From Tubulanus polymorphus (taxonomy: Eukaryota > Animalia > Nemertea), in the NCBI RefSeq assembly GCF_964204645.1, contig NC_134025.1, positions 7,502,001 to 7,566,000 on the forward strand: a stretch of 64,000 bases of DNA, written 5' to 3'. Made by a program: the position numbers and the translations under genes. Position 1 is the stretch's first letter; the number at the start of each line of letters is the position of its first letter. Shown here one piece after another: positions 3,676 to 60,903 of this stretch. The notes under the pieces are model-generated. The model was not told where the DNA came from. It did not search any database and saw only the letters and a list, made by a program, of their open reading frames with translations.

Positions 3676-4160
3676 GTGTGGGAGGGTTTGGTAGGAACAC
3701 AGCGGGACGTACAGTAAAACAAAAATTAATTAAAATGATTTTAAATAAGTATGGATGATATGATGGAACAAATTTTAATTTGCCCAATAAAATAAATAAA
3801 GGGATGAAATGAATTGATGGTTTCTTTTTTTATTTTTAGTTTTTATAATTTTTTCAGGAGAACCGTAAAACTCCCTATAAAACCGGTAGCATCTGGTTTT
3901 ATATTTTTTATTTTTTTTTAAATAAAATTGAAATGCAGGACTGCACGCCCACTGGTTCCTAATGCAAGGGGGTTGAAAGATATTTTGTGGCACCGCGCCA
4001 ACTGCAGACCGACGAAGAAATGAAATGAAACGAAATGAATGAGTTCTTAAAACTCACTTGAGCGATAATAATAATGAATGATGAAAGGAGTGCCGATCTG
4101 CAGACGTGCATGGGCTGATGTTGTTGCCCGGAGTGATGGCGAGTGAAGGGGGATGGATCT

Positions 4161-4900
4161 TTAATTTCTTCTTGCTCTTTTATTTCGTATAAATGTATAA
4201 TTTCCATCAAAGGCCCCTTCAACATCGCGGAGCAATTGCACAGGATCTTTTATGCGGATGTTTCGAGACCAACCAGGGCCGCGTGCAACAAGCTCTACAG
4301 CGGGGGCGGGTGGTACCCCCACTGGAGCGCCCGATGTTCCAGCCTGGGCGGGCATATCATTATTATTAGTTCTTTTTCTTTTTCTTGTAGGATGCACGCA
4401 CACAGGTGGTTGTGGTGGTGGTGGGGGCCCTGGTTGTGGAGCTCCAGGAGCCGCTGAGGACTCCTCATCACTGGACTCCTCAAAATTTGGTTGTGGTGGA
4501 GGAGCCGCACGTTTTGGTGTTCTTTTTTTGTTAGGCCGCCCCGAACCTTCCGTATAATTCACATCTTTCTTATTTTTGCGGGGCGACCTGCGCGGTGCAG
4601 GAGTCTGGACCTGTGGCGCCTCTGTCGGGGCAACCACGGCAGGGGCGACCTCCTGCTTCACGATAACAGGTGGCCCGACCTCCGTATCCGAAGATACGGT
4701 GACCGCAACCACCTGCACCGCAGAAGCAGGGTCCACCACCCGCGGGGGAGCCAACGGTGTTGGTGGATTTGGCTCCCCGTGCTTATGAGACGATAAACGC
4801 TCCACGCACCTTTTTAATCTCCTTTGTAGAAGGGAAGCCGCCTCATAAGCGTGGCCAGACTCATCTTTTCTGTTGACAACATCAATAACAATTGATTCAG
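4161..4900 (-). CDS. Probable terminal coding exon of an unknown Pro-rich, basic (nuclear-type) protein
   Basis: GC-rich open frame of about 245 codons from an acceptor (ttcatttcag near 4901). It contains PRRSPRKNKKDVNYTE, an acidic EESSDEE patch and RKRKR. Upstream exons could not be assembled cleanly. Confidence 0.5.
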
Positions 4901-6189
4901 CTGAAATGAAAAGAAAAACTATTAAGGATCACGAATATTACACATTAATACCACATAGACTTAACGTCTCCACGTCTCCAAATATGCAATTAATTGCCAG
5001 TTTATCTGATTCATTTCTAAATCAAGAGTTCGAAGGCAATTTCAGTTTTGTCATAGTATGTGTTGATACATCAATAATGGTGATGGTATTAGCTTTTGGA
5101 ATGCATAGGTAAAATTGGTTCATACCAATAACTGGAATTATGGTATAGTTCAGGTTTCACAACTACATAAATTTGTTTTGGAATAACTCATAATTTAACA
5201 CTAAAAGAGAAAGCTGATACAGATGTTAATATTATGATCACCTGCCCCAGCCTTACATGTAGATTGTTGCTGAAAAGCTTTCAAATGTATCTTCTTTATT
5301 CCTCATAATTATCAAATTTGATATTATCGTTAATTCATTTTCATAACATTTATAACACCCATTGCTATCAATACAGTTCGGGTATAACTGCAGATGCCTC
5401 TAGGGGTATAAACAAGTATAAACCAAATATCAAGAAAATCCATTATGCATTTCCTCAATCTGTTCTTAATATCTTTTAAGAAAATGCTCAGTAACAAATA
5501 ATCAAGACAAAATAATTACTTTAATTTGTTCATATTCTATTATCTTAACTATAAGGCGCGTTCACACGACGAAATTTAAACCGGCCTAAATTTTAAGTGT
5601 TCACACGGGCAAAAATACCGTTCCAAATTAGACCGGTCTAGTTTAGACCGGTCTAATTTGGCATGGTGTAAAAAAGCGAACCAGGTCCGGACCAAATTTT
5701 GGACCGGTCTAAATAAGTGTGTGTGGACAGAAACTGGTACCAGGTCCGGTGTCACAGTACAAGTGGTATCCCACTCATTACAGGCACCCCCTGATTGCGC
5801 ATGCGCGTGGGATTCCACTGCTTGTTTACCGCAAACGAGTAAAAGCCATCCCCGTACTAGAGGCATCCCCTTCTTTTGTACCAATTCAATTCAATTTATT
5901 GATGCTTTGATTCATCAAACAATTACCAATTATTTATTGTTTGTTTTTGAATAAAATCACTCGCAATGAAAAAAATACTACGTAACAATGCATTCAGTAA
6001 TGAATGCTTCGGCAGTTGCATTTTATAAGCATCAAAACCGTAAATTTAAAAAGTAATCAGACAATTCCGTTTTTTCAAATACTAAAATATATTTTATTTT
6101 CAATATTTAACGATATTTACATTTCCAGTAAAACATAAGAATAACGCATATAAACATGATAACATAAATGATAGTATCTACTAGTATCT

Positions 6190-9100
6190 ATAAAACATGA
6201 TATTAATGATATTTTGAATAAGATACATTCTGATTAACCATTACTTATGACTTAAAAGGAGGGGATGCATGTAATACCGTACCATCTGACAGTATTAGAG
6301 CTACCCCCTAACAGATTGATATTAAAACAACTATTGCAATTAATAACTTCAAAATCTATAATAAAACATGATATTAATGATATTTTGAATAAGATACATT
6401 CTGATTAACCATTACTTATGACTTAAAAGGAGGGGATGCATGTAATACCGTACCAGCTGACAGTATTTGAGCTACCCCCTAATAGATTGATATTAAAACA
6501 ACTATATTGCAATTAATAACTTCAAAATCTATAATAAAACATGATATTAATGATATTTTGAATAAGATACATTCTGATTAACCATTACTTATGACTTAAA
6601 AGGAGGGGATGCATGTAATACCGTACCATCTGACAGTATTAGAGCTACCCCCTAACAGATTGATATTAAAACAACTATTGCAATTAATAACTTCAAAATC
6701 TATAATAAAACATGATATTAATGATATTTTGAATAAGATACATTCTGATTAACCATTACTTATGACTTAAAAGGAGGGGATGCATGTAATACCGTACCAT
6801 CTGACAGTATTAGAGCTACCCCCTAACAGATTGATATTAAAACAACTATTGCAATTAATAACTTCAAAATCTATAATAAAACATGATATTAATGATATTT
6901 TGAATAAGATACATTCTGATTAACCATTACTTATGACTTAAAAGGAGGGGATGCATGTAATACCGTACCATCTGACAGTATTAGAGCTACCCCCTAACAG
7001 ATTGATATTAAAACAACTATTGCAATTAATAACTTCAAAATTTATAATAAAACATGATATTAATGATATTTTGAATAAGATACATTCTGATTAACCATTA
7101 CTTAAAAGGAGGGGATGCATGTAATACCGTACCATCTGACAGTATTAGAGCTACCCCCTAACAGATTGATATTAAAACAACTATTGCAATTAATAACTTC
7201 AAAATCTATAATAAAACATGATATTAATGATATTTTGAATAAGATACATTCTGATTAACCATTACTTATGACTTAAAAGGAGGGGATGCATGTAATACCG
7301 TACCATCTGACAGTATTAGAGCTACCCCCTAACAGATTGATATTAAAACAACTATTGCAATTAATAACTTCAAAATCTATAATAAAACATGATATTAATG
7401 ATATTTTGAATAAGATACATTCTGATTAACCATTACTTATGACTTAAAAGGAGGGGATGCATGTAATACCGTACCATCTGACAGTATTAGAGCTACCCCC
7501 TAACAGATTGATATTAAAACAACTATTGCAATTAATAACTTCAAAATCTATAATAAAACATGATATTAATGATATTTTGAATAAGATACATTCTGATTAA
7601 CCATTACTTAAAAGGAGGGGATGCATGTAATACCGTACCATCTGACAGTATTAGAGCTACCCCCTAACAGATTGATATTAAAACAACTATTGCAATTAAT
7701 AACTTCAAAATCTATAATAAAACATGATATTACTGATATTTTGAATAAGATACATTCTGATTAACCATTACTTATGACTTAAAAGGAGGGGATGCATGTA
7801 ATACCGTACCATCTGACAGTATTAGAGCTACCCCCTAACAGATTGATATTAAAACAACTATTGCAATTAATAACTTCAAAATCTATAATAAAACATGATA
7901 TTAATGATATTTTGAATAAGATACATTCTGATTAACCATTACTTTAAAGGAGGGGATGCATGTAATACCGTATCAGCTGACCGTATTAGAGCTACCCCCT
8001 AACAGATTGATATTAAAACAACTATTGCAATTAATAACTTCAAAATCTATAATAAAACGTGATATTAATGATATTTTGAATAAGATACATTCTGATTAAC
8101 CATTACTTATGACTTAAAAGGAGGGGATGCATGTAATACCGTACCATCTGACAGTATTATAGCTACCCCCTAATAGATTGATATTAAAACAACCAGGGCA
8201 ATTAATAACTTCATAATCCAAAATAAAACATGATATTAATGATATTTTGAATAAGATACATTGTGATTAACCATTACTTATGACTTAAAAGGAGGGGATG
8301 CATGTAATACCGTACCATCTGACAGTATTAGAGCTACCCCCTAACAGATTGATATTAAAACAACTATTGCAATTAATAACTTCAAAATCTATAATAAAAC
8401 ATGATATTAATGATATTTTGAATAAGATACATTCTGATTAACCATTACTTATGACTTAAAAGGAGGGGATGCATGTAATACCGTACCATCTGACAGTATT
8501 AGAGCTACCCCCTAACAGATTGATATTAAAACAACTATTGCAATTAATAACTTCAAAATCTATAATAAAACATGATATTAATGATATTTTGAATAAGATA
8601 CATTCTGATTAACCATTACTTATGACTTAAAAGGAGGGGATGCATGTAATACCGTACCATCTGACAGTATTAGAGCTACCCCCTAACAGATTGATATTAA
8701 AACAACTATTGCAATTAATTACTTCAAAATCTATAATAAAACATGATATTAATGATATTTTGAATAAGATACATTCTGATTAACCATTACTTAAAAGGAG
8801 GGGATGCATGTAATACCGTACCATCTGACAGTATTAGAGCTACCCCCTAACAGATTGATATTAAAACAACTATTGCAATTAATAACTTCAAAATCTATAA
8901 TAAAACATGATATTACTGATATTTTGAATAAGATACATTCTGATTAACCATTACTTATGACTTAAAAGGAGGGGATGCATGTAATACCGTACCATCTGAC
9001 AGTATTAGAGCTACCCCCTAACAGATTGATATTAAAACAACTATTGCAATTATTAACTTCAAAATCTATAATAAAACATGATATTAATGATATTTTGAAT

Positions 9101-11880
9101 AAGATACATTCTGATTAACCATTACTTATGACTTAAAAGGAGGGGATGCATGTAATACCGTACCATCTGACAGTATTAGAGCTACCCCCTAACAGATTGA
9201 TATTAAAACAACTATTGCAATTAATAACTTCAAAATCTATAATAAAACATGATATTAATGATATTTTGAATAAGATACATTCTGATTAACCATTACTTAT
9301 GACTTAAAAGGAGGGGATGCATGTAATACCGTACCAGCTGACAGTATTATAGCTACCCCCTAACAGATTGATATTAAAACAACTATTGCAATTAATAACT
9401 TCAAAATCTATAATAAAACATGATATTAATGATATTTTGAATAAGATACATTCTGATTAACCATTACTTATGACTTAAAAGGAGGGGATGCATGTAATAC
9501 CGTACCATCTGACAGTATTAGAGCTACCCCCTAACAGATTGATATTAAAACAACTATTGCAATTAATAACTTCAAAATCTATAATAAAACATGATATTAA
9601 TGATATTTTGAATAAGATACATTCTGATTAACCATTACTTATGACTTAAAAGGAGGGGATGCATGTAATACCGTACCATCTGACAGTATTAGAGCTACCC
9701 CCTAACAGATTGATATCAAAACAACTATTGCAATTAATAACTTCAAAATCTATAATAAAACATGATATTAATGATATTTTGAATAAGATACATTCTGATT
9801 AACCATTACTTTAAAGGAGGGGATGCATGTAATACCGTATCAGCTGACCGTATTAGAGCTACCCCCTAACAGATTGATATTAAAACAACTATTGCAATTA
9901 ATAACTTCAAAATCTATAATAAAACATGATATTAATGATATTTTGAATAAGATACATTCTGATTAACCATTACTTATGACTTAAAAGGAGGGGATGCATG
10001 TAATACCGTACCATCTGACAGTATTATAGCTACCCCCTAATAGATTGATATTAAAACAACCAGGGCAATTAATAACTTCAAAATCTATAATAAAACATGA
10101 TATTAATGATATTTTGAATAAGATACATTCTGATTAACCATTACTTATGACTTAAAAGGAGGGGATGCATGTAATACCGTACCATCTGACAGTATTAGAG
10201 CTACCCCCTAACAGATTGATATTAAAACAACTATTGCAATTAATAACTTCAAAATCTATAATAAAACATGATATTAATGATATTTTGAATAAGATACATT
10301 CTGATTAACCATTACTTATGACTTAAAAGGAGGGGATGCATGTAATACCGTACCATCTGACAGTATTAGAGCTACCCCCTAACAGATTGATATTAAAACA
10401 ACTATTGCAATTAATAACTTCAAAATCTATAATAAAACATGATATTAATGATATTTTGAATAAGATACATTCTGATTAACCATTACTTATGACTTAAAAG
10501 GAGGGGATGCATGTAATACCGTACCATCTGACAGTATTAGAGCTACCCCCTAACAGATTGATATTAAAACAACTATTGCAATTAATAACTTCAAAATCTA
10601 TAATAAAACATGATATTAATGATATTTTGAATAAGATACATTCTGATTAACCATTACTTTAAAGGAGGGGATGCATGTAATACCGTATCAGCTGACCGTA
10701 TTAGAGCTACCCCCTAACAGATTGATATTAAAACAACTATTGCAATTAATAACTTCAAAATCTATAATAAAACATGATATTAATGATATTTTGAATAAGA
10801 TACATTCTGATTAACCATTACTTATGACTTAAAAGGAGGGGATGCATGTAATACCGTACCATCTGACAGTATTATAGCTACCCCCTAATAGATTGATATT
10901 GAAACAACCAGGGCAATTAATAACTTCATAATCCAAAATAAAACATGATATTAATGATATTTTGAATAAGATACATTGTGATTAACCATTACTTATGACT
11001 TAAAAGGAGGGGATGCATGTAATACCGTACCATCTGACAGTATTAGAGCTACCCCCTAACAGATTGATATTAAAACAACTATTGCAATTAATAACTTCAA
11101 AATCTATAATAAAACATGATATTAATGATATTTTGAATAAGATACATTCTGATTAACCATTACTTATGACTTAAAAGGAGGGGATGCATGTAATACCGTA
11201 CCATCTGACAGTATTAGAGCTACCCCCTAACAGATTGATATTAAAACAACTATTGCAATTAATTACTTCAAAATCTATAATAAAACATGATATTAATGAT
11301 ATTTTGAATAAGATACATTCTGATTAACCATTACTTAAAAGGAGGGGATGCATGTAATACCGTACCATCTGACAGTATTAGAGCTACCCCCTAACAGATT
11401 GATATTAAAACAACTATTGCAATTAATAACTTCAAAATCTATAATAAAACATGATATTAATGATATTTTGAATAAGATACATTCTGATTAACCATTTCTT
11501 TAAAGGAGGGGATGCATGTAATACCGTACCATCTGACAGTATTAGAGCTACCCCCTAACAGATTGATATTAAAACAACTATTGCAATTAATAACTTCAAA
11601 ATCTATAATAAAACATGATATTACTGATATTTTGAATAAGATACATTCTGATTAACCATTACTTATGACTTAAAAGGAGGGGATGCATGTAATACCGTAC
11701 CATCTGACAGTATTAGAGCTACCCCCTAATAGATTGATATTAAAACAACCAGGGCAATTAATAACTTCAAAATCCAAAATAAAACATGATATTTTGAATA
11801 AAATACATTCTGATTAACCATTACTCATGACTTTAAAGGGATGTTATACTGTACCAGCTGACAGTTTTAGAGGTATCGCA
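6190..11880 (+). repeat. Tandem satellite array, 171-bp monomer (164-173 bp variants), about 33 copies
   Basis: cttaaaaggaggggatgcatg recurs at 6251, 6422, 6595, 6766 and onward. Copies are near-identical, with a recurring 7-bp deletion variant. Confidence 0.97.
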
Positions 11881-12072
11881 TTATAGAATGACAGATAAAA
11901 TGATATCAAAACATAAAGGACATTTTTTACTGTCAAACTACCTGACCTGACGATAGTATAGCTCAAAATGATATCACAACTAATTATTAGAATTCATAAC
12001 TGCAAAATAAAAAAATCAACTATGATAATCTTTGGATTCTTACGAAGATACATTTTGTAAAATGACGAAGCA

Positions 12073-15000
12073 TTAGTACGTTGGTTTTAAGCCCTTTTGC
12101 AAAATTTCAATACATTCTTCATCAGATATAACAACATCTGATGGCATAAAGATATTTCCATCAAATTCAGGGTATTTTCTCAAAATACAAGTGGCGTTAG
12201 GGTGGAAATAACCAACTCTCCAGGAATCCCTCTTGCTGGCAGATTTTTTATCAAAGAATTGATAATTTCCATATGAAGCCACAACCAGTCTCGATTTAAG
12301 ATCCGTAGGGCAGCCTTGGCATCGCTTTATTCTCGTCGATCTTTCCTTCATGTAAAATGGCGCTGAAAAATAATACATTATTGATATGTTAAAGCGCTAA
12401 AATGAGACGTGTTACAGCTTTCATGTCGTTATTTTCAAATTACCTATATCTTTTTCTTGTTTACTAGTTCTTTCCTTTTTCGGTAACTCCATCTTTCCGC
12501 CTAGAAAAGTCAATGTAATTGTCAAAAATAACCGATACAGATGTAATAACTAAATTCAAATCTGTGAAAAGTATACCTGTTTCTTTTTTCTTCTTTTTTA
12601 CAGCTTTTCGCATTTTCGTACCTACAAATTGTACACATATATGTATATACAAGACCATACCTCTCCTACTTAATTCGTTATATACGAACATAATTATGTT
12701 CGTGGTCACAAATGCGCTACATCAAATTAGTAATCTGATTGAATAGAATTAAGAAATGCAGAATTAACAGACCTGCAGTTTTGTTGTCACATGCAGTGGT
12801 ATTCTCGAACTCAAAATCACTCGTTTTTCTTCGTTTTGGTGGAACTATGTCTGGTAATTCATTATCTGTAATATAGAAAAACAGGGTACTTTAGGACGAC
12901 TCTATTTCATAGTACTAACTTTCTACTACAGTAGGCCTATCATAATGATTCCTTGGCGAATGTTTGTCTCCATCTGTAATCCATCTTGCAATAAATTATG
13001 GACATTCCCGGTATCCTGACATATTGAACTTACTAGTAACGAACTCTGCATCATGAAGCTCATTTTCATTTTGGACGAGGGACACATCAGGAAAGTTACC
13101 TGAAGAAAAGTTTCTATTCAATTTATCTTCATTCTCCGTTGGTCTTTTACTCTTACTTTAAAATTAGGATTGTGCGCGCGACATGTGTAGTGAGTAGATA
13201 CCTCGGAGCTAGAACCAACTTAATTATTTCTCCTTAGTCTTAACTAAGTACACTGTGAAAAAATTATCATTGATTTTCTTTCGTAAGATTTTTCATCAAA
13301 TTATCCTAAGACTTTAATAACTCCTATAATAATATAATGTTATAAATGGAATCATTCTGGGTAAACCAGGTCGACCAAATGAATCATGCCAGCCAACCGA
13401 TTGGAGTCTTCCCAGTCTTCCTCAAAGTTTGATACATTGTTATGCAACAGCAATTCATTATAACTCACCATTTCCTATAGGATTTCCTTGATTTTCTTGT
13501 TCGCCTGAATAAAAATGAATGCAAATATATTCATTAAAGAATTAATATAATAGATAGAAAAGATATTCGCGAGACTGATCTTTGCTTACTGTCAATAGCT
13601 TTGCAGTACTTGCAAAAAAACATCACACTGCTTGCAATGTTGCTGCCTATCAGGGGTATTTGTCTGTTGTAGCAAGCTAGGTGAAACCACCTAAAGCATC
13701 TATCACAGCCAATCTGATTGAAAATGATAAATCAAATAAACTGGGAACATTTCTAAACATTCACCACGAATAGAAGAAAAATTGTATAATATCAATTAGT
13801 GTCAACGGAAACTTACCCAATCGGTAACATGAATTGAGCTTGCATGACAACATAGACAGCACATCTTTGAAGGATCTGTAGCTATTGAATGAAAATACAC
13901 TGTAATTTCAATTTCAGGTAAAGGAATGTGTATATCTTTATTGCGTACTGTTCACCTTTCTTACCTATCGATCCCATGAGCCACATGGCTATCTCAAATC
14001 GGTACTGATCGATCGCAGAACTAGTATTGTCAAACTCAAGGGTTTCATTTGCCAAAATACTCTCTGCAAACTACAGAATATCGCAGAATATAATCAATTA
14101 TAGTGTGAGGCCTATTTGATTAACAAACACGGTCTCCTGCAAGTTATTTAGATACAGGGTATACCATAATTAAACTTGTTAATATCAATAATATCCCTGT
14201 ATATAAAGTCCTTTCATATACCTTGAGAACAAAGACTCCACATGATGATGAATCTAGCTGCTTTGAGTGTTTGACGGTCCTCAACCTCCAGTTTCCCATT
14301 GACTTGACACTCTTGATGGCGATTGTGTTTTTAAAAACGGTTATCAATTCCTCTTTTAGTTCGCCCAATGAATTGAGATACAAGATCTCTTTCGTATTTG
14401 TCTGTATGATCTGCAGATATAATGAATTTTAAAGCAATTATAAGTTCTATGTTCAGTTCTATGTGATTTGATTAAGTACCATGAGTGTCCAGTGACCACC
14501 ATGTAACAATGGGCATAGCCATACTTCTTTTTCTGCCAATGATCTCTGAAATATAAGAATATCTTTTTAAAAACTGTCACATGAAATGACATTAGATAAA
14601 TCCTTGGATAATACTTCTAACGTTACTTCCTAAGAATTCCAGCTTATTCTATTTCATGGTTACACAAACTTACCAATGCACCCGGCAATCGGCGTCTATC
14701 ACCAAATATCATTGGCGACAAAATATGGCTACTCTGTACTCCAATCGTCTAAAACCATAATGTTTATTTCAATGAATTCAAGAAATTTTCAATAAGCAGT
14801 ACCGCGGTAATTTGTTTAATTGGTACATACGAATGTACACTTCAAACTTTCCATACTTACTTTCGATTCCGTCGAATACTTTAACGTTAAATGATTGAGC
14901 CCTTGAAAAACAGCCTGAAAAAGGAATACGTTTAATCAACCCAGAAAAAATCAAAAAATTGTAAGAGCTTTATACTTACTTCATCATTGAGCTGTTCATT

Positions 15001-18000
15001 TTTTTTTAATGAAAATATTGTCGCATCCGACAACGGTACTCCTCTTACGGTAAACAATTTTCCAAAGTAGTAGTCCTTCGGACCATATTCCCAGGTCGTA
15101 TAAACCACTGAAAGACAGAAATCATACATTCATGATAATTATCATCGCCATTGACTGTGGGCACAATGTGAGAAACTGTTTTCTTACGAGTATCATCTGA
15201 AGGTACTGCTGCTTCTTTTGCGATCGGTACAGACATTTCTATCTCTTCCGTATCACTTATATTTATTATTTCTGTAAATAGACAGGGAATTTATTAAAAG
15301 ATGGGAAAAATGTTTAGAATTTTGTCTATTATACCAACGATATTCTATGTACACACCAGCGTTGTTGTCCACGATGTCGTCACCAGCCTGGACTTCAGTG
15401 TCATCAATTAAACCATCTAGAACAGAATTAATTGACGATGACATTCAACATAATTATTATTTACAAACTTCCCAAATTAATTCATTCATTCTTAAACTTC
15501 TGTTTTATTCTGTACACACCAGCGTTGTTGTCCACGATGTCGTCACCAGCCTGGACTTCAGTGTCATCAATTAAACCATCTAGAACAGAATTAATTGACG
15601 ATGACATTCAACATAATCATTATTTACAAACTTTAGAATTAATTAATTCATTCTTAAACTTTTGTTTTATTCTGTACACACCAGCGTTGTTGTCCACGAT
15701 ATCGGCACCAGCCTGGACTTCAGTGTCATCAATTAAACCATCTAGAACAGAATTAATTGACGATGACATTCAACATAATCATTATTTACAAACTTTAGAA
15801 TTAATTAATTCATTCTTAAACTTTTGTTTTATTCTGTACACACCAGCGTTGTTGTCCACGATGTCGTCACCAGCCTGGACTTCAGTGTCATCAATTAAAC
15901 CATCTAGAACAGAATATAATTGACGATGACATTCAACATAATCATTATTTACAAACTTTAGAATTAATTAATTCATTCTTAAACTTTTGTTTTATTCTGT
16001 ACACACCAGCGTTGTTGTCCACGATGTCGTCACCAGCCTGGACTTCAGTGTCATCAATTAAACCATCTAGAACAGAATTAATTGACGATGACATTCAACA
16101 TAATCATTATTTACAAACTTTAGAATTAATTAATTCATTCTTAAACTTTTGTTTTATTCTGTACACACCAGCGTTGTTGTCCACGATATCGGCACCAGCC
16201 TGGACTTCAGTGTCATCAATTAAACCATCTAGAACAGAATTAATTGACGATGACATTCAACATAATCATTATTTACAAACTTTAGAATTAATTAATTCAT
16301 TCTTAAACTTTTGTTTTATTCTGTACACACCAGCGTTGTTGTCCACGATATCGGCACCAGCCTGGACTTCAGTGTCATCAATTAAACCATCTAGAACAGA
16401 ATTAATTGACGATGACATTCTACATAATCATTATTTACAAACTTTAGAATTAATTAATTCATTCTTAAACTTTTGTTTTATTCTGTACACACCAGCGTTG
16501 TTGTCCACGATGTCGTCACCAGCCTGGACTTCAGTGTCATCAATTAAACCATCTAGAACAGAATTAATTGACGATGACATTCAACATAATCATTATTTAC
16601 AAACTTTAGAATTAATTAATTCATTCTTAAACTTTTGTTTTATTCTGTACACACCAGCGTTGTTGTCCACGATATCGGCACCAGCCTGGACTTCAGTGTC
16701 ATCAATTAAACCATCTAGAACAGAATTAATTGACGATGACATTCAACATAATCATTATTTACAAACTTTAGAATTAATTAATTCATTCTTAAACTTTTGT
16801 TTTATTCTGTACACACCAGCGTTGTTGTCCACGATGTCGTCACCAGCCTGGACTTCAGTGTCATCAATTAAACCATCTAGAACAGAATATAATTGACGAA
16901 GACATTCAACATAATTATTATTTACAAACTTCCAAAATTGATTCATTATGAACTATTGGTTTATTCTGTACATACCAGAGATGTTACTGTCGACTTCCGT
17001 GTCAGCATTTGCCTTCAAACCTTCTAAAACAAAAGATTTTAATTACTTTTCATTATCAGTACATGTCTTCACGAGTATGATGTCTTTAATTCATTAAGAT
17101 ACTCAACTCTTCTTTAGAAGGTTTCTTGGAATATACTCAGTGATTAAATCTCTGGTGGGCATCAAGTGTTTCAAAGACACTTTTCTGCCCAGAGGTCTAC
17201 CATCTTTCAATAATATCGCTGATTTGCCAACAATCTCTTCAATAGTCAACGTCTCCTCGTGGAAGTTAGATTCCAAGAAACCACCTTTCCTCCCAATATT
17301 TTCTGCTTTGTACCTAATATATATACCATATATTCAATGCAACACGTAATAATACATACATAAAACTATAGGCATGGTATGGAACTAATACCTGTAGACC
17401 TTGTCTCCAACTTTGAGGCTCTTCGCTCCTTTATTTTGCCGCCTATCGTAATTAATTTTTTGACGAGTTTGGGCCTTTTCAATATTTTGCCTCGCGGTCT
17501 GTTCAATTTTCTCATGAATGGATAAAATATTGGCTTCAGTATTTCCGTTTTCTTCAACTCCCTGGATATATAAGGTAAATATAGGAAAATGAGACATATT
17601 TTAACAAAATTCAGCATCTTTATACAAAAATTCGAACTGAAAAAATTGATTTTACCGAGTATTCTTCAGTAACCTCTGGTACCTCAATTCCATTCCTGGC
17701 AACTCTTCCATACATAACATAAAACGGAGACATTTTCGTGCTGCTGTGTGGCTTCGTATTAATGGAGTAAGTGGCACTGTTTAAGTAATCGTCCCAATCA
17801 TTTTTTTTAGAATTAACTAAATGCTTTAATCTCCTAAAATACAATAATGTAAGAATGACATAATACATGAAAATAGATCTGTCTGATGTTATATTTCCGT
17901 ATTTTCACGTACTGTTTTAGAGTTTGATTTGTCCGTTCATCGAGTCCATTGGTTTGTGGGTGGTAGGCAGCGGTGACACAATGTTTCGTACCCATCATTT

Positions 18001-21000
18001 TCAATAACTCATCATTCAACTAAAATGAATCAGGATCATTTCACTTATAGTTGTATAGTACTAGTTATACTTATATTGTTATATTGTTATATGATTAAAG
18101 CTGTATAGTTAATTATATAATCATAGTTATATTTATAGTTATAACTATAGTTGTAGTTAAAGATGCTTACTTGAATTTTAGCTAATTTATTAATAATGAA
18201 TAAAATATGAACATTTTCACAAAAATACATAAAACATAAGGTGATCGAAGCTTTAAGATCCCGTAAGAGAATGACAAAACCAATTGTGGGTTAACAAAAA
18301 CCAAAGCTGAGAAATACAACACCAACGTTACTATGATTAAAACACAACCTTAATGTTAAAAAGTTTGACAGTACCTACATACCTTCCTCTGAATTCTGCA
18401 CTTAAAAGAAGACAATATGACATGATTTTCAATGATAACAAGTTCTCTGTGATTTATCAAGAGTCAAACCTACTTGATTATTAAATTCCCTTCCTTGATC
18501 AGACAGGATTCTCTTTGGGGCACCAAATCGATAGTACATCTGTAGGATACACTTTGCAACTTCAGTTGCCGACTTTTGTTTTATCGGGTATGCTTCTACC
18601 CATTTTGACACGTAATCAGTAGCCGTAAATATATACCGGTTTCCATTTTTTGTCATCGGTGCTTCGGTTAGATCAACGCCTACCATTTCCCAGACTTCAT
18701 TAACCTAGAAATAAAAAACAATTAACAATATGGTCTATCGTAATAATAACCTCATAATTAACTTAACTAAATTTCGAAATACAAATCATAAGCTCACAAT
18801 AAAAACGTAGATGGGATAATACTGAGCGCGGCGAAAGCACATGTCATATGTATATAAGGATTGGGGACGAATTTCACTACCTTTTCAACTGTACATATTC
18901 AAATGATAGTAGGGAATTATATCTAGACAGCAGATTTTATATCAACCTTATGAAACATAAGTTATTAATGCAAACCAAAGAGAAAGCCGAACTTAGTAAA
19001 TTGTGAATTTTTATTGGTAAAATTATGAGATTTTTCACTTTTCCTTAGAAATAGCTCGCATGTAAACCTATATTTAATTAGGTATCTACCTACTGTACGT
19101 CGCATATGATGTATCTTTTTATGTACTGTATATATCACTCAAATTGCCTTTGTATTAAGACCAAGAGTTTGTCAAATAAAGTAAAGTAAAGTAAAGTATG
19201 TGAAATAATCTTATACTTGATGTTGGTGAGGGTACATGTAAATTTTATAGAAGAAAAGAGACATTTACCTTAATAGGTTGCAACTCAGAATCGCCCTTCA
19301 GCAATCTCCCAGTTTTGATATTACAGCTTTCACATCCCTTGATCTATTGATTTATTGATGATAAGAAATAAAAAGGCACCTTTAATTGGGTAATAATACA
19401 TGCTCTAATTATTCTATGTTATGTTTAATAATTGTACTGTTACGTAGAATATTCAAACAAATAATATACGGATCAGTTGATCACAATATCCGTGATAAGA
19501 CGATGAGTAAAAATCCCACAATATATGACTGAATCTAAAAGGGTTATTTGATATATGAACTTACCCAGTCTCGCAAGTCATTAGTCATTGAAGGCCAAAA
19601 GTACTTCTCTGCGATCACGGAGAAAGTCTTTTCTAATTTGAAATGGCCTCCTTCAGGACTCGAATGATATGATGTAAAAATCCTTTTTACTTCATCCAAG
19701 GAGCTTACAACTTGGGCATGCTTGCCATTCCGACGAATTCTAAATAGTTGAGTTCCTGCCAAAAACGTAAATTGAAGCAAGATTTATTTTTCAAAACTTT
19801 TATTGATTTTATTTTACCAGAATGAGTTCAAATAGAATAACAAGTTCAATCATTTATATAATATATATCTATCATCAGATTTATGATTATTCGATATTAG
19901 CTGCTTTACTAACTATTGATCGGGACTTGAGATATTTTTCTTAGATATTGAGATTTGATCTTTAATCTATCGATGCAATATCATTATTCATAATTTTGGT
20001 TATGTTCGGTGAAATGGTGGCGCGTAATCTCAAACTCAAGCGGATACAGATCAGTCGTAAGGAAAGATATTCAAACAATTTAAACGCCGGCCCGAACGGC
20101 AAACAACCCTTTTAACCTCTGTGAAAATTGGAAATATAGCTTTTAGAGATACTTCAAAGTTAATAGATATCGCGCGGTTAAAATATGCGGTCCTTGGTTT
20201 CACATCGTCACTGTTCTCTGTTGCGTTCAAAACATCCAAGAATCACCAGCAGATATCTGCATTTCATTTCCTTTAAAATGGTGTTTGAGTTCATCGAGCA
20301 AGGGACTGTAGAACTATATGATATTTAATCTAAACATATGTTTTAAAAAAAGAGTTGAAATTATCGCAAAAATGTGGACCTCGAGGGACCGCCATAAAAT
20401 GGCGCCTATTTATCAAATTTATCAACTTTTAGCATCAAATGCTAAATTTCATGAATCACCCTTAAAGTCGGATAGAATATAGTTCATCAGAATGTATTCA
20501 CTCTAAAATAATCGTTTTAAATCTAAGATTTGGAAGTAATTCTTTTAAATGTTCTAATAGATAGCTCAACTGCTAAATAGAACGGTATAACATGCACATC
20601 CTGTTAAGTTAAATATAATAGTCAATGAGAATACATCTACATAAAAACGTGAATAAGATGATGTCTTATTTTGGAATTATCCAAAAGTGATTTATCTTTG
20701 AATTTTTAATTTGGTTTAGTATCTTTCTATTACGGAACAGCTCTATTAATGCTTTCTCTGGTGCGATGTTAATCAGAATATATCTTCTAAGATACCAAAA
20801 ACCTGTTTGATTTATCAAGTAATACCCTTCTAATTACTGGTACATGGAAACCGCTGTTAAACAACTGTTGTGTTGCGTCGCCTCGTATCAACGTACGTGA
20901 ACATATCATGCCTATCCTAATTGATGGGTACTGCCACGTTCGGGGCCATTAATTTTTACTGCTGACAAAAAGATTCTGACTGAGACACCTGTTCAAGCAC

Positions 21001-24000
21001 GTTGCTATGCATACTAGTCGTATGATTCTATCTACGGTGATTAGAGGCCACAAAATCATAAATTAAAAGTTTTTCACTATCGCAGTTCAGTATAATAGTA
21101 GTCTACTTTAATTTAAATAATAATTGTCCTCCAGTATCTTAATATCATTTTATCAGGGGATAGCTCTAACACTGTCAGCTGGTACGGTATAACATGGATC
21201 CCCTCCTTTAAAGTCATAAGTAATGGTTAATCAGAATGTATCTTATTAAAAATATCATTAATATCATGTTTTATTTTAGATTTTGAAGTTATTAATTGCC
21301 CTGGTTGTTTTAATATCAATCTATTAGGGGGTAGCTCTAATACTGTCAGCTGGTACGGTATAACATGCATCCCCCTTTAAAGTAATAAGTGATGGTTAAT
21401 CACAATGTATCTTATTCAAAATATCAGTAATATCATGTTTTATTTTGGATTATGAAGTTATTAATTGCCCTGGTTGTTTTAATATCAATCTGTTAGGGGG
21501 TAGCTCTAATACTGTCAGATGGTACGGTATAACATGCATCCCCCTTTTAAGTCATAAGTAATGGTTAATCAGAATGTATCTTATTCAAAATATCATTAAT
21601 ATCATGTTTTATTATAGATTTTGAAGTTATTAATTGCCCTGGTTGTTTTAATATCAATCTATTAGGGGGTAGCTCTAATACTGTCAGCTAGTACGGTATA
21701 ACATGCATCCCCCTTTAAAGTAATACGTAATGGTTAATCACAATGTATCTTATTCAAAATATCATTAATATCATGTTTTATTTTGGATTATGAAGTTATT
21801 AATTGCCCTGGTTGTTTTAATATCAATCTATTAGGGGGTAGCTATAATACTGTCAGATGGTACGGTATTACATGCATCCCCTCCTTTTAAGTCATAAGTA
21901 ATGGTTAATCAGAATGTATCTTATTCAAAATATCATTAATATCATGTTTTATTATAGATTTTGAAGTTATTAATTGCAATAGTTGTTTTAATATCAATCT
22001 GTTAGGGGGTAGCTCTAATACGGTCAGCTGATACGGTATTACATGCATCCCCTCCTTTAAAGTAATGGTTAATCAGAATGTATCTTATTCAAAATATCAT
22101 TAATATCATGTTTTATTATAGATTTTGAAGTTATTAATTGCAATAGTTGTTTTAATATCAATCTGTTAGGGGGTAGCTCTAATACTGTCAGATGGTACGG
22201 TATTACATGCATCCCCTCCTTTTAAGTCATAAGTAATGGTTAATCAGAATGTATCTTATTCAAAATATCATTAATATCATGTTTTATTATAGATTTTGAA
22301 GTTATTAATTGCAATAGTTGTTTTAATATCAATCTGTTAGGGGGTAGCTCTAATACTGTCAGATGGTACGGTATTACATGCATCCCCTCCTTTTAAGTCA
22401 TAAGTAATGGTTAATCAGAATGTATCTTATTCAAAATATCTATAATATCATGTTTTATTATAGATTTTGAAGTTATTAATTGCAATAGTTGTTTTAATAT
22501 CAATCTATTAGGGGGTAGCTCTAATACTGCCAGCTGGTACGGTATTACATGCATCCCCTCCTTTTAAGTCATAAGTAATGGTTAATCAGAATGTATCTTA
22601 TTCAAAATATCATTAATATCATGTTTTATTATAGATTTTGAAGTTATTAATTGCAATAGTTGTTTTAATATCAATCTGTTAGGGGGTAGCTCTAATACTG
22701 TCAGATGGTACGGTATTACATGCATCCCCTCCTTTTAAGTCATAAGTAATGGTTAATCAGAATGTATCTTATTCAAAATATCTATAATATCATGTTTTAT
22801 TATAGATTTTGAAGTTATTAATTGCCCTGGTTGTTTTAATATCAATCTATTAGGGGGTAGCTCTAATACTGTCAGCTAGTACGGTATAACATGCATCCCC
22901 CTTTAAAGTAATACGTAATGGTTAATCACAATGTATCTTATTCAAAATATCATAAATATCATGTTTTATTTTGGATTATGAAGTTATTAATTGCCCTGGT
23001 TGTTTTAATATCAATCTATTAGGGGGTAGCTCTAATACTGTCAGCTGGTACGGTATAACATGCATCCCCTCCTTTTAAGTCATAAGTAACGGTTAATCAG
23101 AATGTATTTTATTTAAAATATCATTAATATCATGTTTTATTTTGGATTTTGAAGTTATTAATTGCCCTGGATGTCTTAAATATCAATCTATTAGCTCTTA
23201 TAATGTCATCGATGTTTTAAAATCATTTTATTTGGAGATAGCTCTAATACTACATCTAGTATAAAATGCACCCCTTACGGTCAAATATGATAGCTGTATC
23301 TAATAATTAAATATTGAATAATATGAAGTTTTCAATTTTCATCTATGTTTTGATATCAAACTATGAGGGAATAGCTCTAATACTGCCATATCTGGTGCCA
23401 TGCTAGATATTACCATTAATCAGAATCTGATTGATGTCGTGTATCATTTTCTTATTTTTAAGTAATTAATTGTCATGATGTTTTGATATCATTCTATTAG
23501 AATAGTACGTCAAATATGCCGCCTCTAAGATTGGCCTTAGTTAAATTAGCCTCAAATACCTGAAAAAAAGCTGTTTGATTTATCAGGGAATACCCCTCAT
23601 AATTGCTGGTGCGTAATTGGCATCCATAGAAACCGCAGTTAAACAACTGTTGTGATGCGTCGCCTCGTTTCAACGCACGTCAACGCATCATAAATTGCTA
23701 CAGTCTTCCTTGGGTACTGCCACTTCCAGGGCCGTAGTACCATTAATTTTTACTCCTGACAAGAAGATACTGATAGAAACACCTGTTCAAGCACGTTGCT
23801 ATGCACAATGAAAATCTAAAGATTTTTACGATCTCCAAAGTTCAGGACCTACGTTTTCATCGAGTTGTGAAAAACGTTGAAACTATTTTTTTTCTAACCA
23901 ATATCCTTTACAAAATACACACAAATTTTCAAATGATTGGTTGAAACATTTTGTTCATTTCTTTTCATCTAAATGACTTATTGAAAACTTTTTTAAAAGA

Positions 24001-24567
24001 AATAACTCATTCAGCTTTATTTGGTCGATCCAGAGTCATGACAAATCTTTTTCCCAACAATTTTAGCTTTGATAATAGCAATAAAACCAAAACGCTTCAG
24101 AATTAAAATGATTGGTCGAACAAATTTTCTCACATTACTTAGTAAATTTTTCTTTAAAGAAATAGTCTTGTTGGATAGATCCTGAATGCCGAAAAATAAT
24201 TTTTATTTGGGCCCAAACAGTTTTCCCAACAATTTTAGTTCGGTAACAAAAATCGCACATTCGGTCACAAACGCTTCAGATTTTCAAATGATTTGTTGGA
24301 ATTTTTCACTCACATATCTATCTAAATTTAATTTAAGTCAAGATATCTTTTTCCTAACTGTATTTATCTATCTCAAAAATAATTTTAAAACACTTTAATG
24401 AATTTTCAAATATTATTTTGAAAAACGAAAATATTTCATTTCCTACCTTGCATGGTAAAATGCTTCGCTTTCTTTCTCAGAGTACACTTCATCGCCTTTG
24501 TAAAATCGGCTGGATATTGGCCATTCAACAGGTAATTAGAAAGGTTCGTTGCTTCAGCAGGATCCAT
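12073..24567 (-). CDS. Ginger1 transposase, multi-exon: HHCC Zn finger + DDE integrase + acidic repeat + Ulp1/C48 protease + PHD + C-terminal Zn finger
   Basis: Exon 1 24567-24447 MDPAEATNLSNYLLNGQYPADFTKAMKCTLRKKAKHF. 19755-19565 and 19343-19269 give YHSSPEGGH...YFWPSM...CESC. 18704-18474 has VGVDL...ILSDQGREF. 18019-17913 has YHPQTNGLDERTN. Further exons at 17833-17656, 17561-17392 and 17313-17108, then ten 60-nt exons. Ulp1 motifs LNDE / GGHWTLM / YLNSL / QLDSSSCGVFVL at about 15108-14222. PHD CLCC..IGCDRCFRWFHLAC..CKYC at 13876-13591. Last exon 12362-12073. GT-AG phases stay compatible throughout. Confidence 0.9.
15345..16975 (-). repeat. Ten tandem 162-163-bp exon+intron units, each with a 60-nt phase-1/1 exon encoding DGLIDDTEVQAG(D/A)DIVDNNA
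   Basis: Unit landmarks at 15351, 15514, 15676, 15838, 16001, 16163, 16325, 16487, 16649 and 16811. The minus strand reads ttctag|ATGGTTTAATT...AACGCTG|gtgtgt. Confidence 0.88.
21150..23200 (-). repeat. Second array of the same 171-bp satellite in reverse orientation, about 12 copies, inside transposase intron 1
   Basis: The reverse complement of the left-array monomer (catgcatcccctccttttaagtcataagtaatgg) is repeated. Degenerate copies extend to about 20560 and about 23500. Confidence 0.96.
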
Positions 24568-27409
24568 TTTTATTGATGATAGTTAAATAAATCGATAAGT
24601 ATATTATCGGAAACAAAAAGCACGGCGCGATTGATTACGGTAAATGCTAGCTATGCTGTCAGAGGATGCCGTTTATACGGCGAAAAGCTGTCTGCTATTG
24701 ACGCATGCGCAGTGCATATTGACGCATGCGCAGTCTGCTATGGGATGCCTGTTGTACGGGGATGCTAGTTGTACTGTGACACCGGTCTAAATCGTGATTC
24801 TGTATCTCAGCGGTAGATGTCGCGACCTCTGCGGTAGAGTGTGAGTCCAGTTTATAAAGTTTTAAATGCTTTTATTACCGTTTATGTACTTATTTTTAAG
24901 TACTGTTTTTCCTCCCTATTCTATAGAAATGTTTGGAGCTTATTCGTATTCGTATATCACGATCATCATCCGTTTTACTGCCGTGCTTTGAACCGTGTTT
25001 AAATGATACTTAGCGTTTCAGCGTGATAGAATAAGTCGAATTCGCAAAAATGTCTAAACCTGACAAAGGATCAAATTGGTCAAATGAAGAATGTCTTGCT
25101 CTACTTCGAATCTGGAAGCAAGACTTCATCCAGTCGCAATTAATTATAGCAGATGGCGACATCTTGTGGGCCCGGTGACAAGCGATTTTATCACCGCGTG
25201 TCAAAACACCGTGTGAATGCTCACCAAAATTTCGTTGGTCTAACTAGTTGTCGTGTGAACGCGACTATAGACAGTACATGGTAAATCATATTCAATTTTC
25301 ACATATTTCAAAGTTTTTTTACATTTTTTTCATGGTAGAAAAACAATGCAAACAATTTGATTCAAATTTCGTACATATTTTTATATATATTTTGTATTAT
25401 GAAAATTGTATTATATTTTTGATAAATTTTCAATTTATATGAACTACATCATAAATAATGGAGCTTGCCTGCCCGGGCAAACCTCCGTTTCCGGAGGTGA
25501 AAAATTGAAACCGAATGACAAATAGTCAGAACTACAGTCCGGAAACGATTGACCGCGGAATTGAGCACGGTTGCTGTAGTTCGCACCTAGTTTCAAGATA
25601 GCCGACACTGAAATATGTAACGACCGAACTATAGTGCCTTTGGTTATAAGCTCCGACCTTTAATCGACTAACAATAAAAACCAGGTTCGACCTGGTTAGA
25701 CAGATTGCCACTCAATTCACTGTTGATTTATTCACATTCAAAACAACCAAGATCTGATACCATGAGCCCTGGATTGATGAAGGATCAGCGACTGGGTCAC
25801 TTCACCTCAATGAAGGCCTATTTCACATAAATTCACAACTTATTCAAATGAGCCACTTACCCCTTGAATATCGAATCCTTCAGACACAGCTTATTTAAGA
25901 ATTCACAGGTTTTTGAGTTGTGGCGATAAACGCAAAAATTTCACACAGACGCAGCACAGGTAAAACTTTATCTCCCAAGACTACATCAAGAGGATATGGT
26001 ACTAGTGGTTCTGATGAAGTTCTGGAGTTGTATTTAACAATGTTCAGCTCATATTTGACATAATCTAAGACAATATTCTGACAAAACGCTACATTTGAAT
26101 ACATTTTAATGTTTGAATACATCTTAGTTTATGTGTATTCCTCTGAAACGGATTTACACCATTTACAAAAAGCGATTTGTCTTGAAATCAAACACCAAAA
26201 TTCATTTTCACTTAAACCCGATTTTAGCTATTCACATAAAATGCTTATCATATGAAAAAAGTACAAAATAAGTTTAGGCCTCATTGAGACCTCACCAAAT
26301 CTTCAAATACTGGGCAGTCATTAGTTTCAACTTTGCAATTGAGAGCAATAAAAAATATACCGACACCAACGCGAATCGAAAAATTGCTTATATTTTCATA
26401 ATTTTCAGTTCTCCTTATGGGAGTATCGATACTGAAAAATACTAATTCAACTTGATAAGATGCTGTTCAATTCAAGTAAAATAATATCACAGCATGATAA
26501 TTCATTTACCATTTTGATTTACATGTATAAGAATTGTACAATGGTGATACAAATAAACAATTCAAGATGGAGGGACGCATCAAGAAACCTGTTAAGGTTT
26601 ATGAAAGTAGTTGATGATATTTACATCAATACAAGCAGCCTATCTGCTTCTCCGCTGTTTAATGATAAGACTTTACAAGGACCACCTACACAGCACTCTC
26701 AAGAGTTCAAATCTAGAAAACGGCTCTATTACTTTCTAGCCCTTGGCCCATAGTATCTACATACCAAGTTTCGTCAACATCGGACAATAATTGTAGGACT
26801 AGTAGCGATTTAAAGATTTTACAAGCGCCACCCGTACAGTGCCCCCTAGAGATCAAATTGGGAAAATGGGTCTATAACAAGATCAGAAAAGAACTGTAGC
26901 ACTAGTAGCAAATTGAAGCAAAAGTTGACGGATGGACGACGATGGATAATCCCCCTAACCCATCAAAACCCACAAAAACTCATTGGAAAGCGGGTTTCAT
27001 TGAATATCCCGCGGCATTTTTGCGGCATAAATACCCACAAGAAAGCCATTTTGTTTCTGATCAAAAAATGTTTTTGGGATGATGAAATAAAGGGTATCAT
27101 AAATGTATAACAAAAATTCAAGACGAGAATAAATATGCAAAATGTACTTATTTTGACCGAGAAACAACAAAGGCTGCCAGTCAGTTATCTTAATTCTGAT
27201 AAGGGCCAATACTTAAGATTCGTTTATTGAATATTGAATTTCAACCAAAAAAATTATTAAGACAATTCTGATTTCTCAATGTATCATTTTATTTAAAATT
27301 TTTTTTTAATTTTATCATTTTATTGAAGTATTCACAAACCGAATTCAGAAACCGAACAATCAACAATCAGCAGTTTGTAGAATAACCAGACAGCTACAGT
27401 TAACAATAA

Positions 27410-29774: not shown

Positions 29775-30223
<449 letters not shown>

Positions 30224-52091: not shown

Positions 52092-60903
<8,812 letters not shown>

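Follow-up and report, generated by a model that had tools for sequence, protein, structure and literature searches.

What does a transposase gain from a tail made of a protease and two zinc fingers? This question is raised by a locus of the nemertean Tubulanus polymorphus within the 64,000 nucleotides analysed here (below "the window": assembly GCF_964204645.1, contig NC_134025.1, forward-strand positions 7,502,001 to 7,566,000; all positions given count from its first letter). The window contains a Ginger1-like DNA transposon of 19,032 bp (5750..24781), intact as judged by its ends, its CCGG duplication and its open frame; both ends begin TGTCACAGTACAA, and its gene lies on the minus strand. 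We propose, with roughly even chances of being right, that this gene encodes a single Ginger1-like transposase of 1128 residues which carries a finger resembling the break sensor of PARP1 and acts in the handling of DNA breaks. It is not settled why many transposases bear Ulp1 or OTU proteases: Bao, Kapitonov and Jurka (2010; PMC2836005) only proposed a repair role for such proteases, and a 2026 review lists the function of Ulp1 in Vandal elements as unknown.

A Ginger1 transposase with both Ulp1 and PHD has already been published, namely Ginger1-9_HM in Table 1 of PMC2836005, and an amphioxus protein (XP_078701370.1) has all three modules plus a UBA domain. The first-pass annotation of the window therefore overstated its case in calling the triple combination unusual; the new part is the terminal domain. 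This domain of 95 residues, which includes the CQGC...YFHPNATC motif of the last exon, had no match in Pfam and represents a family missing from that database. A phmmer search against 1.84 billion representatives gave 13 matches, comprising a RefSeq protein of T. polymorphus (XP_074655369.1, here P0001), ten true relatives and two chance matches that were dropped (P0010 and P0011; no CxxC, short repeats, PDZ). Searching longer proteins with a profile yielded eight matches, three of them new, and the profile of the untrimmed alignment A1 found no homolog among proteins of 1090-3110 aa. In an 11-row alignment, C14, G16, C17, Y51 and H53 are the same in every row, and C58 in 10/11 rows; by eye, a K/R stands four places before the first Cys in 7/11 rows, and four or five places before it in 10/11.

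The predicted fold points to the PARP-type fingers. An AlphaFold2 model of the window's finger reached a pLDDT of 95.3, and when it was compared by VIA-align with 48,161 chains, ranks 1-7 were occupied by PARP1 Zn2, PARP1 Zn1 and the ligase III finger (best Z 7.1, root mean square deviation (rmsd) 3.2 over 80 residues; next row 3.4). The same seven zf-PARP chains came out on top for P0004, a relative from amphioxus whose model has a pLDDT of 69.7 overall and mostly 78-87 in the finger domain (Z 6.5 with an rmsd of 3.1 over 87 residues; next row 3.0), and Foldseek also ranked PARP1 zinc fingers first for the window's finger (best E 0.038). The earlier guess of a PARP-type-like last module was thus supported at the level of the predicted fold. 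The nemertean finger shares its predicted fold and the ligand order CxxC..H..C with PARP1 Zn1/Zn2 and the DNA ligase III finger (PF00645), but it has a longer hairpin, and it sits C-terminally on a transposase, whereas those of PARP1 and ligase III are N-terminal on a repair enzyme. Our literature search, term look-ups in PMC12863088, PMC6431247, PMC6839031 and PMC8195603 included, turned up no PARP-like finger on any Ginger element, with Repbase, Marin 2010, subscription papers and the FASTA supplements of Bao 2010 outside its scope; the main text of PMC2836005 contains PARP 0 times and UBA 0 times.

The gene model runs from 24567 to 12073 with 34 exons, 33/33 GT-AG introns and 1128 open codons. 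It encodes, in this order, a YPYY-type motif, an H2C2 finger, a DDE core and a C-terminal integrase module (aa 1-420), an acidic spacer (aa 421-664), the Ulp1-type domain, the PHD finger, a linker and the terminal domain. The first-pass annotation covered 12073-15271, so that the integrase exons (24567-17108) fell outside it. The 15 exons of this 3' part, joined at GT-AG introns, contain 0 stops in 492 codons in frame, as compared to 30 and 40 in the two other frames, and the first stop is the TAA at 12075-12073. The C48-type protease, the complete C4HC3 PHD and the cysteine-containing last exon read there earlier were recovered in frame, with Pfam matches above cut-off for C48 and PHD on their open reading frames (ORFs).

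Nine of the 12 listed joints in the contigs of run X4 are GT-AG splices, from 14222 down to 12362, and the remaining three are deletions in a diverged copy. Overlapping X4 pieces join the catalytic-Cys exon, PHD, linker and last exon, none of them covering all in one piece; from the PHD to the finger, the terminal exons are therefore linked and do not form a separate transcript. In total 9/14 introns within 15271-12073 have contig support, and the last ten exons are spliced in contigs, X4 being treated as RNA solely from its GT-AG joints since no listed run is recorded as RNA. The five introns between 15188 and 14410, as well as every upstream intron, are predicted only. As the 3' exon limits were taken from the X4 joints, agreement between model and joints is no independent test; the open frame is one, and so is the match to P0001. 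The latter is the closest database protein, identical to the model in 316/319 residues (aa 810-1128), and therefore comes either from a different allele of the modelled gene or from a very close copy of it. A random-chain control gave 0/5000 open chains, a weak result because the exons had been picked for open frames. At 12154-12757 we observed a second copy, roughly 90% alike, from which 12218-12293, and with it part of the finger exon, as well as 12575-12690 are deleted.

The amphioxus protein mentioned above (XP_078701370.1 or P0018; 1577 aa, "uncharacterized" in RefSeq, known from a protein model without N-terminus) combines integrase, acidic tandem repeat, His-Asn-Cys Ulp1, PHD-like finger and terminal finger in the same order as the nemertean model. 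Identity amounts to 39% over 325 columns in the integrase, 26% over 241 in protease-PHD and 34% over 83 in the finger. Its own features are the UBA domain after the PHD, a Pro/Lys repeat, the retained GPY and WLND motifs and the loss of both Trp from the PHD. Because this RefSeq protein repeats the domain order, the finger-tailed Ginger is a lineage and not a one-off. Of the other relatives, P0012 pairs a PHD with the terminal finger, and the amphioxus model P0005 consists of the tail only.

Between integrase and protease, P0018 has 59 TEDS units, which are unrelated to the nemertean unit. The nemertean spacer contains 77 D/E versus 3 K/R, and 200 of its residues derive, according to the predicted splicing, from ten near-identical 60-nt exons in which 2/60 sites vary. 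Unrelated acidic repeats at the same place suggest that the spacer was built by repeated expansion. A motif resembling a SUMO-interacting one at aa 638 was rejected, as it arises in 590/2000 shuffles.

The protease domain was recognized by Peptidase_C48 (PF02902) on the ORF 14147-14428 (E 2.5e-4, 21.4 bits, cut-off 20.7); on the exact exon the score was 18.2 bits and under cut-off. The amphioxus homolog P0005 matched SENP2 with E 1e-8. His, Cys and the oxyanion Gln are all present (H768, C829, Q823). Contig support within the protease exons comes only from joints below 14222.

Enzymes of the DDE integrase type act by cutting and joining DNA. The integrase would excise the element and reinsert it at CCGG sites, and the finger would bind nicks or ends at donor and target sites regardless of their sequence. 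By holding the tail at the break it would keep the protease there, which might remove SUMO or some other ubiquitin-like tag, either from the transposase or from repair factors of the host, and repair of the breaks would thereby favour the element; the PHD could add a nucleosome contact. Passages of PMC8150716 describe how PARP1 fingers grip breaks independently of sequence, via a basic grip and a stacking loop. The UBA domain in amphioxus leaves the choice of protease substrate open. A predicted break-sensor fold that both nemerteans and amphioxus have kept on a protease-bearing chain directs attention to the site of the break, and the 95-aa domain offers a small, testable unit for the question of the Ulp1 tails. 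It is conceivable, although rather unlikely, that there is a cross-phylum Ginger lineage whose own break sensor, coupled to removal of SUMO or ubiquitin-like tags, competes with the PARP1 of the host wherever the element is excised or inserted, that amphioxus in turn transferred this finger to DED and CARD/Death adaptors to serve as a sensor of DNA or a decoy, and that the finger is a new, uncatalogued branch of the PARP type.

The PHD finger leads to another account of the tail. It has all 8/8 ligands of a C4HC3 finger and was detected on the ORF 13537-13731 (E 4.7e-6, 27 bits, cut-off 24), although in P0001 the score of 18.5 bits is under cut-off. Its nearest PDB sequences are the plant ARID PHD 6lqf (E 5e-4) and the PHDs of Spp1, BPTF and MLL; these nearest PHDs are readers of the active mark H3K4me3. 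W892, D896 and W901 are in place, and two Trp plus an Asp are typical of methyl-lysine readers. As the first-pass annotation had suggested, the tail might counteract silencing: the PHD would read histone marks, the protease would de-SUMOylate silencing complexes on the element and the finger would be only a DNA anchor, perhaps at the 171-bp arrays near both element ends. Passages of PMC13317346 also report that VANC/KIU of Vandal elements, which bear Ulp1, cause hypomethylation, with the role of Ulp1 unknown. These Mutator elements (Kaonashi/VANC; PMC13317346, PMC2836005) share with ours a transposon-borne Ulp1 domain, but they belong to another superfamily, VANC is a separate gene and not a transposase tail, and so is KIU, for which the hypomethylation link was shown. 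Moreover, reading of H3K4me3 would equally fit target choice, and PARP-type fingers are described as sequence-independent (PMC8150716). The amphioxus PHD-like finger keeps its zinc ligands and has lost both cage-position Trp; mark reading thus does not seem to be a fixed trait of the lineage. As the finger with its break-sensor-like fold is kept there, the fold favours DNA-break handling over anti-silencing, a role that we consider possible, yet doubtful as the main one.

The linker (aa 934-1033), earlier noted as Lys-rich, deserves this description in its final third only; as a whole it is nearly balanced (19 K/R versus 18 D/E). Its basic runs resemble nuclear localisation signals and may act as such.

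A number of observations weigh against the break-handling proposal; they concern the continuity of the protein, its protease and its finger. The donor at 17108, which connects integrase and tail, is the lowest of all 33 (-4.7 in a leave-one-out matrix; next 0.7), no spliced contig exists upstream of 14375 to give this splice RNA support, and XP_074655369.1 starts at Met810, that is within the protease and after the catalytic His. Read-through past the donor leads to an in-frame stop just inside the intron and to a protein of 421 aa. The tail could then be mainly a separate or alternatively processed product, with the 421-aa form as the working transposase, in line with the RefSeq model of the final 319 aa only, the tail-only model P0005 and an unexplained loose end in X4: at 14375, a site without an AG acceptor, 32 foreign letters precede the protease exon in a contig, possibly by chimerism, and their source was not found in the window (best match 16/20). 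Against this speak the exons from 17023 to 15107, all of which are phase 1, such that the frame is kept only by a phase-1 donor as supplied by 17108. The phase-1 donors at 17201, 17228, 17282 and 17285 outscore it and might serve in its place, though with loss of the conserved end of the integrase module. Furthermore, a product starting like the RefSeq model would include no whole protease, P0018 is one fused model, and Ginger1 transposases are described as single fusion proteins. Between 16990 and 21100, 0/15 contig joints are GT-AG and run X5 contributed no contigs, which has no weight either way owing to the poor contig cover. Given the phase-1 spacer exons, the published Ginger1 fusions and the amphioxus model, integrase and tail are quite probably fused in one protein, and a mainly separate tail is improbable. 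The stacking of three modules on one transposase, as claimed earlier, holds insofar as the modules share one transcript model; their join to the integrase is predicted in this copy and depends on the weak donor. In the break-handling scheme, this donor after exon 8 may additionally yield the short integrase-only form.

As to the protease, the third triad residue is Asn here and in amphioxus but Asp in SENP2, and the Trp of the WLND motif, kept in P0018 and SENP2, is replaced by Gln. According to passages of PMC9920524, the viral protease pS273R functions with a C-H-N triad, and a His-Asn-Cys triad should be workable in this protease clan; activity of the domain is nevertheless not assured because of the replaced Trp.

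The finger departs from PARP1 in its H-x4-C spacing, that of PARP1 fingers being H-x2-C. None of the 11 finger sequences (0/11) matches the Pfam model zf-PARP (PF00645) at E up to 10. Neither fold model has a Foldseek match at E<=0.001 (best 0.038; P0004 0.056), their Z scores are middling (<8, a level possible for a common arrangement), and the two models share most alignment rows and hence are not independent. Against PDB sequences, finger alignment A1 had 0 matches and A2 six, none of them better than E 0.44. For the window's finger the Atlas returned no usable match; one Atlas cluster at 0.85, with zf-PARP in 19% of its members, is a lead only. In view of the lacking profile match, Z below 8 and the shared rows, we call the domain PARP-like, by predicted fold and ligand order, and not a PF00645 member.

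The finger also seems not to be tied to transposition, since it occurs at the end of amphioxus DED and CARD/Death/TRADD-N proteins (P0003, P0008, P0021) and twice in P0020. Transposon fusions among such proteins are reported in PMC8195603, in passages that do not mention this finger. Such fusions to adaptors, the adjoining UBA domain in amphioxus and an identity to PARP fingers of only about 10-12%, along with the missing Pfam and profile matches and middling Z, would also agree with a PARP-shaped but protein-binding or structural finger, in which case the tail would regulate transposase stability and not act at breaks. This we regard as very unlikely: a basic cluster stands ahead of the first Cys, at the place of the backbone grip in PARP1, and both fold searches place zf-PARP chains alone on top.

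The Ginger1-like nature of the host element, proposed in the first-pass annotation, was supported by several features. Both termini read TGTCA, consistent with the 5'-TGTNR of Ginger1, and CCGG directly flanks the element on both sides as a target site duplication (TSD), for which Ginger1 has 4-bp CCGG or CCGT; according to passages of PMC2836005, Ginger1 elements insert at CCGG. The terminal inverted repeats (TIRs) are imperfect (13 bp identical; 25/40 ungapped; 64 columns at 77%, TSD included) and within the Ginger1 range of about 40-270 bp. Pfam detected rve (PF00665, E 4.5e-13) and Integrase_H2C2 (PF17921, E 5.7e-13). In exons 1-2, Y-P and two later Phe were counted by eye as the Y/F-P-Y/F-Y/F motif, in a region without a Pfam model match. 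The BLAST alignment to P0018 passes through the C-terminal integrase module, whose exon has no Pfam match; EETL stands where P0018 aligns GPY. Because this GPY/F tripeptide is absent, we file the element as Ginger1-like and not as a certified member. With Ginger1 and Ginger1-9_HM it further shares introns and the C-terminal Ulp1 and PHD; the PARP-like finger and acidic exon array are not in the description of Ginger1-9_HM, with which it was compared by description only. With 19 kb and 33 introns it lies far outside the values tabulated for Ginger1 in PMC2836005 (2.6-7 kb, 0-4 introns), its protein has 1128 aa versus about 500-800, and it extends the Ginger range by its size, its introns and a spacer made by tandem exon duplication. 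Readings as an LTR (long terminal repeat) retrotransposon or a domesticated gene were rejected given the inverted ends, the TSD and the absence of reverse transcriptase: for reverse transcriptase, gag and LTR, there are no ORFs >=150 aa at 20000-24781, and none was seen by eye among 116 ORFs at 4000-20000 (part of them Pfam-scanned). The coordinates of all features are compiled in Table 1.

Table 1. Features of the Ginger1-like element, ordered by position in the window
Feature	Position	Strand	Remarks
TSD CCGG, left	5746..5749	.	flanking copy of CCGG
Whole Ginger1-like transposon, 19,032 bp	5750..24781	-	TGTCACAGTACAA termini, CCGG flanks
TIR at 3' end of gene	5750..5805	+	imperfect; ~60 bp at 77%
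Subterminal array, 171-bp unit	6190..11839	.	33.4 copies; inverted relative to array 21139-23194
Last exon, 95-aa terminal domain	12073..12362	-	C1047 C1050 H1086 C1091; predicted PARP-type-like zinc finger; joint 12362/12444 in contigs
Five linker exons	12444..13504	-	13504-13469, 13099-13034, 12865-12773, 12621-12577, 12500-12444; acidic, then Lys-rich
PHD finger, two exons	13590..13881	-	13881-13817, 13713-13590; C4HC3 complete; W892 D896 W901
Ulp1/C48 domain, six exons	13965..15107	-	H768 at 14494, N785 at 14374, Q823 at 14260, C829 at 14242
Acidic exon ahead of protease	15188..15271	-	predicted
162-bp tandem array	15348..16985	-	unit of one 60-nt phase-1 exon plus intron; splicing predicted
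Integrase-to-tail intron	17024..17107	-	weakest donor of 33; read-through stops after 421 aa
Integrase exons 2-8	17108..19755	-	H2C2 (H71 H78 C108 C111), DDE (D140 D198 E234), C-terminal module
171-bp array	21139..23194	.	12.1 copies; within 4,691-bp first intron
Exon 1	24447..24567	-	predicted; holds the start codon and, by eye, the YPYY-type motif
TIR at 5' end of gene	24723..24781	-	imperfect
TSD CCGG, right	24782..24785	.	flanking copy of CCGG

Further repeats were observed in and around the element. A direct repeat (20797-21011 versus 23565-23805, 76%) lies on either side of the 5' 171-bp array. Intron 1 contains a high-copy repeat at about 20020-20408, with a summed contig depth of up to 19,090 in run X1 versus 114-138 in unique parts, and smaller repeats near 18920-19140 and 19490-19550. 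The transposon appears to sit in a small non-coding element (about 5553-5749 and 24782-25258) with the inverted ends AGGCGCGTTCACACGAC (left) and GTCGTGTGAACGCGACT (right) and many CCGG sites. A 255-aa Pro/Lys-rich open frame without Pfam match adjoins the transposon at 4161-4928 on the minus strand. Elsewhere in the window, there is a perfect (CTG)89 tract at 29956-30223, and long AT microsatellites at 52574-53725 separate exons of another gene, which, going by a motif, we take to resemble a xanthine dehydrogenase/aldehyde oxidase gene.

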